NCBI RefSeq assembly: GCF_963921235.1
Contig: NC_086097.1
Coordinates: 170,130,001-170,194,000 of the forward strand
DNA length: 64,000 nt
Source: Mobula hypostoma
Lineage: Eukaryota
Direction of reading: 5' to 3'
Shown here: positions 16,876 through 56,136 of the stretch, piece after piece
Layout of the letters: the number at the start of each line of letters is the position of its first letter
Position numbering within the stretch: position 1 is the first letter of the stretch
Program-made: the position numbers and the translations under genes
Notes under the pieces: model-generated
The model's database searches: none
Seen by the model: the letters and a program-made list of their open reading frames with translations, nothing else
What the model was told of the DNA's origin: nothing

Positions 16876-18942
16876 CATAGTCATAGTCATTGTCATACTT
16901 TATTGATCCCAGGGGAAATTGGTTTTCGTTACACTTGCACCATAAATAATAAATAGTAATAGTAATACTACTATTAGTAAATAGTAATAGTCATGGAAAT
17001 AATAACTAGTAATAGAATAGTAATAGAAAAATAGTAATAAATAGTTAAATAGTAATATGTAAATTATCCCAGTAAATTATGAACTAAGTCCAGGACCAGC
17101 CTATTGGCTCAGGGTGTCTGACCCTCCAAGGGAGGAGTTGTAAAGTTTGATGGCCACAGGCAGGAATGTCTTCCTATGATGCTCTGTGCTGCATCTCGGA
17201 GGAATGAGTCTCTGGCTGAATGTACTCCTGTGCCCATCCAGTACATCATGTAGTGGATGGGAGACATTGACCAAGATGGCACGCAACTTAGACAGCATCC
17301 TCTTTTCAGACACCACCGTGAGAGAGTCCAGTTCCATCCCCACAACATCACTGGCCTTACGAATGAGTTTGTTGATTCTGTTGGTGTCTGCTACCCTCAG
17401 CCTGCTGCCCCTGCACACAAGAGCAAACATGATAGCACTGGCCACCACAGACTCGTAGAACATCCTCAGCATCGTCCAGCAGATGTTAAAGGACCTCAGT
17501 CTCCTCAGGAAATAGAGACGGCTCTGACCTTTCTTGTAGACAGCCTCAGTGTTTTTAGACCAGTCCAGTTTATTGTCAATTTGTATCCCCAGGGATTTGT
17601 AATCCTCCACCATGTCCACACTGGCCCCCTGGATGGAAACAGGGGTCACCGGTCCCTTAGCTCTCCTCAGGTCTACCACCAGCTCCTTAGTCTTTTTCAC
17701 ATTAAGCTGCAGATAATTCTGCTCACATCATGTGACAAAGTTTTCTACCGTAGCCCTGTACTCAACCTCATCTCCCTTGCTGATGCATCCAACTATGGCA
17801 GAGTCATCTGAAAACTTCTGAAGATGACAAGACTCTGTGCAGTAGTTGAAGTCCGAGGTGTAAATGGTGAAGAGAAAGGGAGACAAGACAGTCCCCTGTG
17901 GAAGCCCCAGTGCTGCTGATCACTCTGTCGGACACACAGTGTTTCAAGCACACGTACTGTGGTCTGCCAGTCAGGTAATCAAGAATCCATGATACCAGGG
18001 AAGCATCCACCTGCATCGCTGTCAGCTTCTCCCCCAGCAGAGCAGGGCAGATGGTGTTGAACGCACTGGAGAAGTCAAAAAACATGACCCTCACAGTACT
18101 CGCTGGCTTGTCCAGGTGGACGTGGACACGGTTCAGCAGGTAGATGATGGCATCCTTAACTCCTAGTTGTGGCTGGTAGGTGAACTGGAGGGGATCTAAG
18201 CGTGGCCTGACCATAGGCCGGAGCAGCTCCAGAACAAGTCTCTCCAAGGTCTTCATGATGTGGGAGGTCAATGCCACCGGTCTGTAGTCATTGAGGCCGC
18301 TGGGGCGCGGCGTCTTCGGCACGGGGACGAGGCAGGATGTCTTCCACAGTACAGGAACCCTCCGGAGCCTCAGGCTCATGTTGACTACATGGCGAAGTAC
18401 TCCACATAGCTGAGGGGCACAGGCTTTGAGCACCCTGGTACTGACACCATCCGGTCCTGCAGCCTTGCTTGGGTTGAGACGTTTCAGCTGTCTTCTCACC
18501 TGTTCAGCCGTGAAGCCCACTGTGGTGGTTTCGTGTGGGGAAGGGGTATAGTCATGAGAGCAGGGTGGGGGACTGTGAGGAGGGGTAGGAAGGGAGAGTG
18601 GAATATGTGTTGGTTGGGGGCCGAGAACAGATGGTTCATGTAGGGAATGGGTAGTGGTCACAATGTCAAATCTGTTAATGAACAGGTTAAGTTCGTTGGC
18701 CCTGTCCACACTGCCTTCAGCTCCTCTGTTGCTAGTTTGCCGAAACCCAGTGATGGTCCTCATCTCCCTCCAGACCTCTCTCATGTTGTTCTGCTGGAGT
18801 TTCTACTCAAGCTTCCTCCTGTACCTGTCTTTAGCCTCCCTGATCCTGGCTTTCAGGCCCCCCTGTATTGTCCTCAGCTCCTCCCTATTTCCATCTCTAA
18901 ATGCCCTCTTTTTAGCGTTCAGGATGTCCTTAATGTCCTTTG
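16876..18942 (-). mobile_element. Rex1/Babar LINE, 5'-truncated and young
   Basis: KAAGPDGV, NDYRPVALTS, FFDFSSAFNTI, KTKELVVD and RLYFLRRLRSF motifs; AATAAA plus (ATGACT)n tail; TSD-like TCAAT at 16871-16875 and 18943-18947. Confidence 0.92.
16945..17060. repeat. (AATAGT)n-like low-complexity expansion in the Rex1 3' UTR
   Basis: Repeated AATAGT/TAGTAA units; the equivalent region in the sister copy (about 51535-51580) is much shorter. Confidence 0.7.
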
Positions 18943-38330: not shown

Positions 38331-38727
38331 ACGTGTATGGGAGGGCAATCAATGGCCAAAGGTCAGGCATGTGTTAATGTGTGCGAACTAAGACCTGTCT
38401 CTTGCAATATTCAGATGTCATTTCTGTACAAGTGTTTGGAATCGGAAGCAGTAATATGAGAGGTATAAATAAAAATCCTTCTGCTGAATCATTTTAATAC
38501 TTGGAATGGTTTCACGGAGGAGTAAGGCAGCAAATGAAGAACTAAGCTGAGCAACTATATTAGACAGCACAGTACGAGCCCTTTTTTCCATCTAACCCTT
38601 CCATCCTACACAAAGGTTTCAAAGGTACATTTTATGTCATTTAATGCATACATCCTGAAATTCTTTTTCTTTGCAACCATCCACAAAAACAGAGGAGTGC
38701 CCTCAAAGAATGAAGGGCAGTTAAATG

Positions 38728-39421
38728 TGTAGCCCCCTGGCCACCCTCAGGGTCGCTCGGCTCACTGTCGTCTAGGGAAACAGCCTTCGGCCCCACCAAA
38801 CTGGGTAATTAGTTTGTGTGGATGCTGTGTGATGTACCCCACCCCGCCCAAATAACAGACAATACACCAGATACAATTAAATAATTTACCATTTATAGAT
38901 ATTACTGGAACTATATAATTAACAGAGAATAAAATATACAAGGAAAATAATAGGTGCCACACTTATCAAAGTTCAATCTCTTCGTGCACAAACAGTTGGA
39001 ACTCAGGACCCTTCTTCTTCACCCTGCGATCCCTCGGACCACTTCGACTGGCCGCCTGGGACCAACAACGGTGGTCGACCAAACGCTCCACACGAGTCCA
39101 TCTCCGTCTCCTCGCCTCGCCGAACGCCCTCCTCGGGGTCCGACCCCGTTAGTGGACTCATTGCACCTGGTCCATCCTCTCTCTCTCCCGCCTTTTCCCC
39201 CAAAACCCCACGCATACAATATCTTACAGATACACCAAAATCATAACAACTATCCCAATTGGTTCATAACATCTTCTTATCAGTAACGTGATTCAACAAA
39301 CTGCTAGCGGGAGGACTTTTTCAGCATTTAACATAACAAAGAAGCATTCCCAAGTATAACATAACAAAGAAGCCATTTTAATTAGCCTACGCAGTAACAT
39401 AAGAGACGAAACCCCCTTACA
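38728..39421 (-). repeat. 3' LTR
   Basis: Direct repeat of 41965-42659, roughly 90-95% identical by eye. Confidence 0.95.
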
Positions 39422-39437
39422 CTCTCCCCCCACCAAA
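39422..39437 (-). promoter_or_regulatory. Polypurine tract
   Basis: Minus strand TGGTGGGGGGAGAG abuts the 3' LTR. Confidence 0.8.
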
Positions 39438-39691
39438 TAAAGTCACGTCCTCATGACTTCTAAATAACTCGCCAACTAGTCCTGCAGACACATAACATAC
39501 ACATACACAGAAACACACAGTGACAGTGCTTCCTAAACAGTGGACCTTACGCCCGTCCCACGGGCGCTACATAGGCCAACCTATCTGGGAGCTTCTTAAC
39601 CCTCCGAGACCTCCTTACCCCCTCACCTAAACCCAAAAGGCTCAGACACTCCTAGGGATACCTCGGGCCTGCTTGCCAACTCCTCTCTCAC

Positions 39692-40678
39692 TCAGGCCAC
39701 CAGTACAGCTCGGAGCCCCCTGTTCCGTGTCCGGAGCCTCGCCTCTCCTCCTTCCTGATTCTGCCATAACTCAGACTGCCCACAGCTGGCCCTCCCCACT
39801 ACACCTGACTCAGTGGGAGAAGGGCCAAAGGTCTCGTCATCAATCATGGGGAAGTTAGCAAAAGGCAGCATGTACCACATGTGCAGCACATCATCCTTCG
39901 AATCCATATTCTTCCTCATTCCCTCGATCGGTAGTTGCTGTATAAGTTTCTCCAAACTGAAACATTTAGCTGGGGCTACCCCTTCAGCCTCCTGTAGTCG
40001 AGACGTCAGCTTCTTCGGGGACTCCTTCAACTCTTGCCACAGCCTCAGCAGTTCTGACTCAGGGTTCTTGGCCATCTCAATCTGGGACGCAGTTACCCCA
40101 CCAGCTTCTTCCAATCTTTTCTGAATCGACGTCTTGAGTTTCTGCTGATTCCTTCGAAGGTGGGTCATTGTTTCTTCTCGCTGAATTAAATCATCAGTAC
40201 ATGACTGCAGTGTCAGCTCGGAATTCCGTTGCTCCTTCTCCACGTTGACGAGCGTGAATTCCAAGTCCGCAATGGTCATCCCACCAGCGCGGCACTCAGT
40301 CTCCAGCTGGCATTTCTGAGCACTCAGTTCAGCGGTGCAAATCCCCTCTCTCCCCTGTGTCTCATTCATATTGACGACCTGGGTTTCCATCCCCAGGTCC
40401 ACCACCGTCTGTTCCACCACCAGGAAGTTCAACTGGTATGTCGGGTCATTTTTCTCACATTGCACCAAACTCCTCCGGCCAAAAACTCCTCCACATTTGA
40501 CACTTCGCTTCTGTCGCCTGGGCTCAGTCACTCGCCTCGCCTCATAGTCCCCCCAGGTGAATCCAACCTCTAGGCGGTCATCCACATATGCCAAAACTCC
40601 ACACACCTTCACTTCCCCCATGGTCCTCCTCATGCCCCGTGAGAAGGATGCAGGGACTCCGGATATGCCCTTGGGCAT
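39692..40678 (-). pseudogene. Chimeric ORF: RT remnant (YVDD), myosin heavy-chain coiled-coil segments, Gypsy pol tail
   Basis: MPKGISGVPASF...LAYVDD, then LVQCEKND, AELSAQKCQLETEC, DLEFTLVNVEKE, RLEEAGGVTASQIEM, KKLTSRLQEAE and AKCFSLEK. Confidence 0.8.
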
Positions 40679-40687
40679 CTTTTCGGA

Positions 40688-41350
40688 TCAGAAGAATCCT
40701 AGGGAACTAATAACCGCCATCTTCGGCTCAACAGCTGCACTCCTTGGGATCTGGCAACATCCTCTCCTCAGATCCAGCACATTAAACCACGTTGCATAAT
40801 CCACACACACGCTGCCTCCATCTTCCACGGCGCCAGGGTCCAGTTGCCACGACCTCTCTCTCATTGAAGTGTCTTCAGTGGTCAACTCCTCTCCCTTGTG
40901 GTAGATTGGAGCATCTACTAAGAGGGTCTCACCCTCAGCTACTTTCCCCAAGCCGTACCACCGCTGGGTCTTGCTTAAATTTGGTACCGGCTCAAGGCGG
41001 CTATACACGTCCTCAGAAGCAACTCGACATGCTGGGTGCCCAGACAATGCCCCCATGAACTCCAGGGTCATTAACCAATCATCGTCTTCTGGATAACTAC
41101 TGGCACTGGTACCCAAAATCTCCGGTGCCCTTGCGGTTGTCAAGGGTAAATGCTTCAGACACCGGTTGTAAAAAGAACTGTACAACAACTTGACCTGTGC
41201 CCCGGGGTCGAGGATGGCTTTAACATCACTTCCCTCTATCCATAACAACATCCTGGGGCGCGGTCCCTCTAAGCCTTCAGGAATAGGGTCTTTTCCTTGC
41301 GGAAGTTTATTGGTACATTGCTGGGAACGTGCTTCCCCAGAGATCCCCAC
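40688..41350 (-). pseudogene. Gypsy aspartic protease plus N-terminal RT remnant
   Basis: [10 protein letters not shown] (a DTG-like site), VCVDY and [10 protein letters not shown]; same frame as 39692-40678, separated by one TGA. Confidence 0.8.
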
Positions 41351-41360
41351 TGGGCCTCCA

Positions 41361-41804
41361 CTAAGTTTCCCACACTTCTCTGATCAGCTGAACAACTGAA
41401 GGAGGGGCTGACCCCCTGAAATGATCCCCCTGGCCTTGCAAGCAATTTAGCCGCCCTCCTAGCCAGCGAAGACACACTGAAAACTTTCCCCCCTCTTTCA
41501 AATAACTGACAGCTGTCACTATGGTGTAAGTGAACCTGACAGCTCTCACTCCGTCACCAGCCCGCCTACTTAAACTTTCAACCAGTCCCTGTCGCTCTCC
41601 CTCAACCGAGCACTGCCACTCATCTAACAACTGAGAGATCAGCTCCGCCTGCATCTCGCATGGCTCTGCCCCTCTTGGGGTGGACACTATCCCAAACGCC
41701 AGGCGGAGCCTGCCAGAGCTAGAACATTTAGTCGCAGACACTACCTCCAAATCAGACCACTCTTTCCTCTCTCTCTCAACAGCATGGACAGCCCCGAGTG
41801 CCAC
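41361..41804 (-). pseudogene. PNMA-like Gypsy gag remnant
   Basis: [16 protein letters not shown]...QLLDEWQCS...RQGLVESL. Confidence 0.75.
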
Positions 41805-41943
41805 CCCTCCAACTCGTCAATGCCAGCCTGAACTCGAACAAAGACCGCACCCACCACGCATACAGCAATAACCAGCAAATAACCCACAGAGACACACATT
41901 ACAGATTTAAACAGGGCACCCACACAGCATACCAGTAGACCCA

Positions 41944-41961
41944 ATCCCGGACGAGCCCCCA
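41944..41961 (-). promoter_or_regulatory. Primer binding site, tRNA-Pro
   Basis: TGGGGGCTCGTCCGGGAT lies 3 nt inside the 5' LTR and matches the canonical tRNA-Pro PBS. Confidence 0.92.
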
Positions 41962-41964
41962 CAG

Positions 41965-42659
41965 TGTAGCCCCCCGGCCACCCTCAGGGTCGCTCGGCTC
42001 GCTGTCGTCTAGAGAAATAGCCCTCGGCCCCGCCAAACTGGGTAATTAGTTTGTGTGGATGCTGTGTGATGTATCCCACCCCGCCCAAATAACAGACAAT
42101 ACACCAGATACGATTAAATGATTTACAGTTTATAGATATTACTGGAACTATATAATTAACAGAGAATAAAATATAAAAGGAAAATAAAAGGCATCACACT
42201 TATCAAAGTTCAATCTCTTCGTGCACAAATAATTGGAGCTCAGGACCCTTCTTCTTCACCCTGTAATCCCTCGGACCACCTTGACCGGCTGCCTGGGACC
42301 AACAATGGTGGTTGACCAAACGCTCCACGAGTCCGTCTCTGTCTCTTCCCCTCGCCGAACGCTCTCCTCTGGGTCTGACCCCATTAGTGGACTCACAGCA
42401 CCTGGTCCATCCTCTGTCTCTCTCTCCCGCCTTCTCCCCCAAAACCCCACGCATACAATATCTTACAGATACACCAAAATCATAACAACTATCCCAATTG
42501 GTTCATAACATCTTCTTATCAGTAATGTGATTCAACAAACTGCTAGCGGGAGGACTTTCTCAGCATTTAACATAACAAAGAAGCATTCCCAAGTATAACA
42601 TAACAAAGAAACCATTTTAATTAGCCACTCAGTAACATAACAGACAAAACCCCCTTACA
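41965..42659 (-). repeat. 5' LTR
   Basis: TGTAAGGGG...GGCTACA on the minus strand, followed by the PBS. Confidence 0.95.
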
Positions 42660-43594
42660 AATGTTAGAACCCCAAGACCCTCACAGCGTAAGCAGCAGCA
42701 AAGCAACAATCCCCCCTCCCCACCAGCAAAAAAAAGCATCAGCACCCCCCCCAAATGAGCACTCAACCATGCAGCAAAGCATCAATAAAGACACAGACTT
42801 GCAGTATCCCAAACACTACTCATTCACCTGGTATTCGACATACCACAGGCTCTCTCTCTCCCTATAAGGGAAAAAGAGATGTCCCCATTTCACAGTGAGA
42901 GGGGAGACATAACAAACAACTCGCTGATTTACCATGTTAACAGTCGCTTTTTCTGAGCTCTGTGCCCAAAGAACTCTGGTCTCTGGGCACACAGCCAGTA
43001 TCTAGCTAGCTGCTTTTGATCTTCCCTCTTCCACGATACACTGATTTCCTGCAGAGGCACTGACCTCAAGTCCGCCTGTCTCCAGAGCCATGAAATCCTG
43101 AAACTCCGAAGGCGCACTAATCTTCTAGGCTGCGTCCTTGATATATCGAATAATGGCAAACCGTGAGACCCTGAGAGTGTGTCCTGTTCCCGCAAAAAAA
43201 CTGAAGTCAGCGTGTAACTCCAGGTCAGGGTCTTCAAAAGAACCCTGGAAGGGAAAAATAGAGATATTGAAGATAGAAATAGAGCTGTTTCCGAAGAAGC
43301 AAGCAAAGGAGTCGCTGTTAGGCGCCATTGTCTCCTCAGCCCCTACACAGCCCAACCCTCCCATTTTTCCTACATCCGTGTGTCTGTCTATAAATCTCTT
43401 AAATGCCCCTATAGTTTCAGGGTCTACCACCACCACCAACAGTGTACTCCAGGATGCCACCACTCCCTGTGTAAAAATCCTTTCTCTGACTTCTCCCCTA
43501 AACTATCCCGCACTCACCTTAATCGGATGTCCTTAGTCCATTGCAGCCCTGGGACAAGGTGCTGGCAGTATGCAATAAAGCACAAACTGCTGCC

Positions 43595-50907: not shown

Positions 50908-51651
50908 AGACTAAGGAGCTGGTCGTAGACTTGAGGAGAGCTAAGGTACCGGTGACCCCTGTTTCCATCCAGGGGGTCAGTGTGGACATGGTGGAGGATT
51001 ACAAATACTTGGGGATACGAATTGATGATAAACTGGACTGGTCAAAGAACACTGAGGCTGTCTACAAGAAGGGTCAGAGCCGTCTCTATTTCCTGAGGAG
51101 GCTGAGGTCCTTTAACATCTGCCAGATGATACTGAGGATGTTCTACGAGTCTGTGGAGGCCAGTGGGATCATGTTTGCTGTTGTGTGCTGGGGCAGCAGG
51201 CTGAGGGTAGCAGACACCAACAGAATCAACAAACTCATTCATAAGGCCAGTGATGTTGTGGGGATGGAACTGGACTCTCTCACGGTGGTGTCTGAAAAGA
51301 GGATGCTGTCCAAGTTGCATGCCATCTTGGACAATGTCTCCCATCCACTACATAATGTACTGGGTGGGCACAGGAGTACATTCAGCCAGAGACTCATTCC
51401 ACTGAGATGTAACACAGAGCGTCATAGGAAGTCATTCCTGCCTGTGGCCATCAAACTTTACAACTCCTCCCTTGGAGGGTCAGACAACCTGAGCCAATAG
51501 GCTGGTCCTGGACTTATTTCCTGGCATAATTTACATATTACTATTTAACTATTTATGGTTTTATTACTATTTAATTATTTATGGTGCAACTGTAACGAAA
51601 ACCAATTTCCCCCGGGATCAATAAAGTATGACTATGACCATGACTATGACT
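50908..51651 (+). mobile_element. Rex1/Babar LINE, short 5'-truncated young copy
   Basis: Protein nearly identical to 17101-17700; AATAAA plus (ATGACT)n tail; TSD AGACTGC / AGATTGC at 50901-50907 and 51652-51658. Confidence 0.93.
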
Positions 51652-54137: not shown

Positions 54138-56136
54138 TGCAACTCTCACTTCGGCTCGCAACTTAGTATAGAGGATGATAGCCCCCTGGCCCGGCCAAAG
54201 TTAAGAAATCTTGTTTGAGTGGACATTGCGCGATGCGTCACCTGCTACAAATCAGTACCATGAAATAACAAACAGTATATAATATGCGATCAAATGATTG
54301 AACTTTAAAATTCTTAAATGAACTATACGGTTAGTAAAGAAAACAAAAGAAGAAAAAGAGCCCATTCTCATGAAACGGTTCCCAGACACACAAGAAAGAA
54401 CAACATCCCCCTCATTGGCTAGCATGCCCATTATCTCTAGTCATCACCTGAACACTGCTGCTAAAGAAAACCCATCACCTCAGCCGTGGAACATTACAGA
54501 GAAGTCACTAATTAGCAGTGAAACCTTACAGCGTGTAACACTTACCCCCTACCTAATTCAGTCATGTCCTCATGATGTTGAGGTAATTTGCCAACCCTTC
54601 CTGCAAACACAAAGTCCCAACCAGGTGCACAAGGCAGTGATATAGCTCCCCAAAACAGTTAGTGTCACACTCTGCTCCCTGGTGCTACACAGTCCCTCGT
54701 CTAAATTTGGTATCTAGCCTAATGCAGCCATGCACTTCCTCAAAAGCAGCTCGAAACCCCGGGTGCACGGACAATGTTCCCAGAAAACTCTCCCCAGCCT
54801 TCTCCTTGCAGGCCCCCATGAGCCTCTTCACAAGAGGGGTATTGGTCCCCACCAGAATTGAAATGCCGCCCTTCTCAACGGGGTCCGGACAAACCAGTAC
54901 TAATGTATCAAGGACCTCAGACAGTCCCACATCGGCCTCCAAGAATTCCAACTTCACTGACATATAACCGTTGTATGGATAATCACTAGCACTAAACCCC
55001 AGATCTCCAGTGCCCTGAATGGGGTCAAGGGTAAATGCTTCAGATACCGGTTGTAAAACGAATGGTACAACAACATGACCTGTGACCCAGTGCTGAGTAT
55101 GGCTTTAGCATACATACCCTCTATCCATAGTGTCACACGGGAGCGTGGTCCCACCAAGCCTTCAGGAATTGGGCCTTTTGCTTTCGGGGATTCCTTGGTA
55201 CATTGCTGGGAACGTGTTCCCCAGAGACACCAGGCCATTCCCTCACTGGGTCTCCTCTAGGGTTTCCCAACGACTCTCTCTGCTTAGGTACCGGGGGGCT
55301 CACTCTCCTTCTGGTGTGACACCTGCTGCCAGCAGCCCTCCGCATTGTTCGTCCCCTTGCGGAATCCGCCCCCCCCATCAGCTTCATCGTATGGGGGAGT
55401 CACACCTGCTGATAACAGCCGACATATCTCCATTCTCAACTCTACCACAATCTCCTCTACCGCTCCATGGGGCAGGCTACCTGTGGTCACTTCACCGCAG
55501 GGAACTACTACCGAGGACTGTACCCTGCTGACTGAGTCCTTCCACGCCGCCGCTGCGTTCTCCTCTTCCTGTACCTCTCTGATCAGCTCAACAAAAGAAA
55601 GAGGGGGGCGCGTCTTACGAGACTGTCGGAGACCCTAAGCAATCAGGTCATGGGACTGGGTGCCCCGGCTATCTGGTCCATTCTTAATTGATCCACCTCA
55701 GCCGCCTGAATGACCCCTCTGCGCTGCAAGCAATTTAGCTGCCTCTCTAGCCGAAAAATAAAAGCAGAAATCTTCTCCTCCTTCTCCTGACGCATGTTCT
55801 GAAACCCCACCATGAGCTCCATTGGGCTTCCAGTTGGACCAGAAGCATTGTCCAGTGCTTGCATGTAATTGACAGCTGTCACAACAGGACACTTTAACCT
55901 GACAGCTCTCACAATGTCAGCGGCCTGCCCATTCAAACTCTCAACCAATCTCTGTCACTTTTCATCATCAGAGCACTGCCACTCATCTAACAACTGAGAG
56001 GTCCTCTCCGCCCAAGTCTCATACTCCTCCTCCCCTTTCGGGCCAAACATTGTTGCTACAGAGAAACCATTACCTCAGTAGTGGAACATTACAGAGAAGC
56101 CATCACATCAGCAGTGAAACCTTACAGTGTGTTACA
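54138..56136 (-). mobile_element. Deleted Gypsy LTR element with PNMA-like gag and protease
   Basis: LTR 54138-54540, partial LTR about 56042-56136, TSD ATTG at 54134-54137 and 56137-56140; gag LVESLNGQAADIVRAVR; protease [11 protein letters not shown]. Confidence 0.88.

Follow-up and report, generated by a model that had tools for sequence, protein, structure and literature searches.

We found that a non-autonomous Ty3/Gypsy element of the ray Mobula hypostoma carries spliced mRNA of one host sarcomeric myosin gene, and by structure it is an LTR-mediated retrocopy as well as a Gypsy element. Its copies decay neutrally after insertion, and we could show statistically that the transposing lineages fixed amino-acid changes but no stop codons. 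We consider it probable that the myosin sequence, captured and amplified with the element, is kept in an open reading frame by selection without constraint on the protein.

The window, that is the whole stretch of 64,000 nucleotides analysed here, holds a copy of this element (Table 1). A preliminary description of this DNA had proposed a Gypsy element with myosin rod sequence in frame with pol, and we could confirm this with a 331-codon stop-to-stop ORF (39692-40687, minus strand) in which RT, myosin and pol tail follow in that order. In the window copy, a CGA-to-TGA stop at 40688-40690 splits the RT frame (this CpG codon is a stop in 9 of 29 copies) and the loop of the stem after GGGAAAC is shortened. 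The gag match to PNMA (E 2e-5) was obtained on copy P0013, and at the family level gag has no majority-shared stop across ~240 codons. The protease, measured on copy P0011, is 57% identical over 112 aa to the pol of L060, a full-length relative in the same genome. Elsewhere in the window lie a second, truncated Gypsy relative (54641-56042, minus strand), whose gag and protease pieces resemble the element at 75-79% and whose ORFs showed no myosin, and a pair of 613-nt inverted repeats (17081-17693 and 50908-51520; 94% complementary, 33 kb apart).

Table 1. Features of the myosin-carrying element in the window.
Feature	Position	Strand	Remarks
Whole element	38728-42659	-	~3.9 kb, non-autonomous Ty3/Gypsy, dead copy
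5' LTR, TG...CA, 695 bp	41965..42659	-	LTR pair 93.6% identical (648/692 aligned)
3' LTR	38728..39421	-	partner of the 5' LTR
Target-site duplication AATG	38724..38727	+	partner at 42660-42663
Primer-binding site (PBS), 18 nt	41944..41961	-	putative tRNA-Pro type
Polypurine tract (PPT)	39422..39434	-	motif also in full-length relative L060
Deleted gag remnant, PNMA-like	41361..41899	-	broken in window copy
Slippery heptamer GGGAAAC and downstream stem	41365..41371	-	putative -1 gag-pol frameshift signal
Protease remnant	41057..41371	-	DPG in place of the relative's DTG
RT remnants including YVDD	40493..40873	-	YVDD at 40577-40588
RNase H remnant (SLVQCEKNDPTYQLNFL...)	40404..40483	-	alignment to L060
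Captured spliced myosin rod	39920..40403	-	~160 aa; match to host exons
Host exon A, part	40226-40403	-	terminates at the exon's splice donor
Stretch from host exon(s) without location	40118-40225	-	within captured rod
Host exon G	40082-40117	-	exact junction with exon H
Host exon H	40025-40081	-	abuts exon G
Host exons I/J	to 39920	-	I and J joined
Gypsy pol C-terminal tail and family stop codon	39692..39919	-	tail also in L060

In L060, the gag/pol overlap, the tail and the tract are as in the element, and integrase occupies the place held there by myosin. Integrase, reported absent in the preliminary description, was indeed not found: when natural long ORFs are aligned by blastp with this full-length relative, the C-terminal tail follows directly on RNase H. 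RNase H had been called absent too, but residues 69-97 of the window ORF align with the RNase H of L060 (48% identity, pairwise E 2e-4). SLVQCEKND, formerly read as myosin SLLQEKND, thus belongs to a remnant of RNase H, and the myosin, first placed at 39920-40471 (~185 aa), starts at 40403 and not at 40471. Neither the element nor L060 showed an env gene; in L060, pol reaches the 3' LTR and leaves no room for one. The element thus has TG..CA LTRs, a PBS, a PPT, a 4-bp target-site duplication (TSD), dispersed copies and defective enzymes, as a non-autonomous Ty3/Gypsy element should, and departs from the intact PR-RT-RH-IN of an autonomous one by its missing integrase, fragmentary RT/RH and altered protease motif. 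The suggestion that it was mobilised in trans is supported by the loss of integrase, the change of DTG to DPG and the existence of full-length relatives. Another pol match in this genome (G000:C76:3021618-3025796) falls within a frame of unusual length, which spans 2780 codons and contains a single stop.

The identity of the cargo was established at both the protein and the DNA level. First, the best PDB matches of the window ORF were all myosins (Myosin-7, E 4e-4), and P0010, a less decayed relative, matched myosin with an E of 2e-10; the matched blocks are colinear and far apart in the native rod, as had been described. Second, the window DNA is 73-91% identical to host myosin exons, far above coiled-coil background, and older element copies are 84-100% identical to the same exons. 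The Pfam Myosin_tail_1 search proposed as a check gave no score on the window ORF (nor did Pfam on the window ORFs give an RT match), so it would have failed although the myosin claim was right.

We could also confirm that a spliced host mRNA had been captured. On alignment to the host MYH gene, similarity breaks off at the GT/AG exon borders, and element copies carry adjacent exons without a gap, spanning the exon-exon junctions G|H and I|J in the window and D|E and E|F in older copies, which indicates an RNA origin through intron loss. For 40118-40225 the corresponding host exon(s) were not found, none of the 40 matches scored lying in a host gene. The host sequence lies between both LTRs, from the end of RNase H to the pol tail, where it replaces part of the internal ORF; it is in frame with pol at both ends, runs from ~residue 904 to ~1433 (P0025 numbering) and is about as long as the pol stretch that it replaced. 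The interior of exon H matched the host gene only (1/1 match) and was thus lost at or soon after capture. The window copy lacks ~270 bp of myosin kept in 25 of 30 sampled copies, as do four others. Microsimilarity was assessed for the 5' switch point, at which 12 of 14 nt are alike between L060 and the host, L060 being only 60-77% identical to the element. Given that this point coincides with a host exon start as well, the junction may have arisen by template switching or by splicing.

The donor is one host gene (G000:C68:14.52-14.72 Mb), which is very large (>190 kb for part of the rod). It is a divergent sarcomeric myosin, likely MYH16-like though unproven, so the MYH16-type label given earlier is plausible without being established. 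Two Hypanus element-derived proteins are named "putative MYH16" at NCBI. Among the sequences compared, none of them a named MYH16, the donor shows a weak grouping (87/76) with another divergent gene, at C36:112.7 Mb, and these two MYH16-like genes (the second at C36:112.72 Mb) have extra intron position(s) in common. Its Narcine orthologue, 90% identical in exons D-E, is named myosin-6-like. Other candidate donors were rejected: four multi-exon myosin-tail genes (C68, C36, C45 and C80) had no DNA match and read as non-muscle types by sequence, and the C68:15.3-15.9 cluster together with genes on C2, C40 and C36 reached no more than 67-73% where the donor reached 85%. Donor exon A gave no match when used to search for homologues, and the Atlas search returned myosin-tail clusters only, with recognition below the reliability line. 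The donor lies ~0.6 Mb from an eight-gene sarcomeric myosin cluster. Possible retrocopies of other myosins were also noticed, as long, apparently intronless myosin-tail matches with stops (G000:C18:48745523, C50:30689110, C184:304888, C157:172388, C21:138691427 and C12:196941089).

The family counts at least ~148 scored loci and 570-850 candidates, a first look with the insert having returned 851. The protein search gave 152 matches, and 148 of the 150 listed lie, as far as checked, outside host myosin genes. That the family would be multi-copy with different TSDs was borne out, since the 4-bp duplications were exact and mutually different in four of eight copies (a one-mismatch pair was found in one, and none was resolved in three). 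In total 46 copies were fetched: the first 30 loci form the backbone alignment, and the 16 further copies comprise nine of subfamily B, five of the old subfamily O, which rests on these five, and two unplaced. B and O each have their own deletions, which removed different parts of the myosin. Copies L012, L019 and L004 carry internal inversions or duplicated LTR pieces. Related annotated proteins occur in Mobula birostris, M. hypostoma, Hypanus sabinus and Hemitrygon akajei, and the myosin-to-tail (3') junction is identical in Mobula and Hypanus proteins, which argues for one capture before their split, unless the element moved horizontally.

These observations show that an ancestral ray Ty3/Gypsy element lost its integrase (~520 codons) and received the spliced myosin mRNA in its place, probably by RT template switching inside a particle. 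Having retained LTRs, PBS and PPT, the chimera then spread to hundreds of sites, with enzymes presumably supplied in trans by autonomous relatives, and split into subfamilies that lost further pol and myosin sequence.

We then considered the reading frame. Between -1077 and +1062 (714 codons) of the backbone built from 30 copies, no stop in the pol-myosin frame is shared by a majority, while the other two frames have dozens, and natural copies retain frames of 603, 677 and 716 codons. Variants confined to one or two copies evolve neutrally, with an omega-like value of 0.98 and 110 stops vs 127 expected. For changes fixed between subfamilies, expected counts were derived from the measured mutation spectrum, and a codon was counted only if every subfamily had a clear majority there. 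The comparison of all three subfamilies covered 394 codons with 195 fixed changes (139 missense and 56 synonymous), and there were no new stops in the pol-myosin frame where 10.5 were expected (P 3e-5), nor in the myosin part alone (4.5 expected, P 0.011). With the same method the two non-coding control frames gave 7 vs 9.0 and 8 vs 7.6 expected stops, so the method is calibrated, and the deficit differs significantly between the pol-myosin and control frames (Fisher P 7e-4). Pairwise comparisons over 543 and 548 codons gave 0 vs 11.1 and 1 vs 14.4 expected stops, the sole stop lying near the 3' end. Two other tests were not significant: the gag frame (0 vs 2.4 expected, P 0.09) and a first host-versus-family test over 174 codons (0 vs 1.2, P 0.29).

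Protein-level constraint was not detected. A raw NG86 dN/dS of ~0.6 was set aside for the spectrum-based expectation because it ignores transition bias. On that expectation the fixed changes gave an omega-like value of 0.86 in the pol-myosin frame, no lower than the 0.72-0.80 of the control frames; by part it was 0.80 in protease-RT, 0.75 in myosin and 2.5 in the tail. Thus, the dN/dS comparison among copies proposed in the preliminary description did not reveal constraint on the cargo. We give almost no credence to a selected protein or regulatory function of the myosin fragment, be it as a dominant-negative rod, a small-RNA source or a domesticated master gene: the insert is retained in several ray genera and rare variants of the myosin part lean slightly towards synonymous changes (omega-like 0.78), but the lineage value of this part is the same as in the control frames, deletions have eroded the insert step by step, and the 46 copies fetched did not include a conserved single-locus one. 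Contigs from four runs guessed to be RNA lay over all 30 bins of the element and are not evidence of expression.

Indels were less informative. In each comparison five of eight subfamily-level indels are in frame, and the others comprise shifts of 1-2 nt close to the 3' end, one of 1 nt apparently compensated by a nearby undetected indel, and one complex event. The frame-preserving deletions postulated at the outset are supported for the most part. Two of three apparent frame changes in the B and O backbones were explained by a G-run and by a 2-versus-2 alignment column, and the third is a real shared deletion. Microhomology alone would leave 41-59% of deletions in frame, and eight of the 12 single-copy deletions of at least 20 nt are in frame, which makes indels weak evidence for frame selection. 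A 14-nt frameshifting RNase H deletion is common to two of four O copies and a variably expanded, unstable G-run to four of six B copies, so two small frameshifted sub-lineages may have moved. These sub-lineages, the in-frame deletions favoured by microhomology and the neutral evolution of the protein are what one would expect of a pure passenger whose frame stayed open by such deletions and chance. We nevertheless regard this as very improbable, since it leaves the 0 vs 10.5 stops unexplained while the control frames match expectation.

The slippery heptamer was kept in 27 of the 39 copies scored, L060 included, in all subfamilies and mostly with a downstream stem. Taken together with the absence of stops despite free amino-acid change, this suggests that the transposing lineages are selected to keep a meaningless frame open. 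Ribosomes would enter pol by the retained -1 frameshift and read to near the 3' end, with the myosin as a filler whose protein sequence is immaterial and whose readability is selected. As to mechanism, the foremost candidate, at somewhat under even odds, is that the open frame shields the RNA from UPF1-dependent long-3'UTR decay. In the available text of PMC7566565 and PMC5360307, NMD is inhibited by read-through and by frameshifting, for which low rates suffice. Such protection is consistent with frame shifts being tolerated close to the 3' end. Against this candidate, longer downstream ORFs are reported to require more read-through for protection (PMC5360307).

Co-assembly of a Gag fusion in cis comes next among the mechanisms, as a less probable candidate. 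As a full alternative to selection for readability, it holds that Gag-Pol-myosin co-assembles with helper Gag and pulls its own RNA into particles; what matters would then be length or a C-terminal patch, and the coiled coil is perhaps a spacer or oligomeriser. It would account for the open frame and the kept frameshift signal; the tail motif directly after the myosin is recognisable in all subfamilies, and the 1-delta-1 GAG-POL fusion is described in the available part of PMC7411935 as aiding retrotransposition in cis. We find this alternative unlikely, given that protease-RT, myosin and tail all lack amino-acid constraint, that the tail differs in frame between subfamilies after position +924, and that the subfamilies have different myosin deletions. 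We lean slightly towards a vertebrate non-autonomous lineage under long-term selection for translatability alone, with captured coding sequence serving as stop-free filler behind a frameshift.

Acutely transforming retroviruses carry in-frame fusions with spliced host sequence and depend on helpers. The ray element resembles them in both respects but has no env or infectious phase seen and a cargo whose protein is unselected, so the oncoretrovirus analogy drawn earlier holds for the capture step, and not for env or for amino-acid constraint on the cargo. Closer are the LTR-mediated retrocopies of animals, in which, according to the available text of Tan et al. 2016 (PMC5131818), a piece of host mRNA lies between two LTRs in place of part of the internal ORF, with short similarity at switch points, and some were retroposed again as non-autonomous elements. 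As described there, those retrocopies are young with one or few insertions, whereas the ray family has hundreds of copies, subfamilies, a presence in several ray genera and a selected open frame. Maize Bs1, as far as covered by the accessible part of PMC13317346, is likewise an LTR element whose chimeric ORF includes transduced pieces of host genes. It belongs to a plant, made three captures and is described as possibly a functional new gene, whereas the ray element made a single capture, has hundreds of copies and shows no constraint on its protein. The mouse IAP 1-delta-1 (PMC7411935, available part) is also non-autonomous and helped in trans, with a deletion that leaves a fused frame said to aid its own mobility in cis. 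It is an endogenous retrovirus without host cargo, while the ray frame is reached by a -1 shift and its case is an evolutionary footprint (the stop deficit) and not experimental. Within the literature searched, which included few subscription papers, no account of a ray myosin-Gypsy family was found.

The family is an old, much-amplified vertebrate example of host-gene capture by an LTR element. What is new is a frame kept stop-free without protein constraint, which separates selection on the reading frame from selection on the protein. In practical terms, annotation treats element copies of Mobula and Hypanus as genes for myosin heavy chain or MYH16 (NCBI proteins P0005, P0007, P0009, P0010, P0019 and P0026), and gene-family counts in ray genomes are thereby polluted. 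If the stop deficit holds, ray genomes would offer a natural experiment on RNA surveillance versus cis-packaging in the survival of defective retroelements, and would bear on which step keeps captured genes intact until domestication. If selection for translatability alone is true, in-frame sense captures are predicted to be those that amplify.
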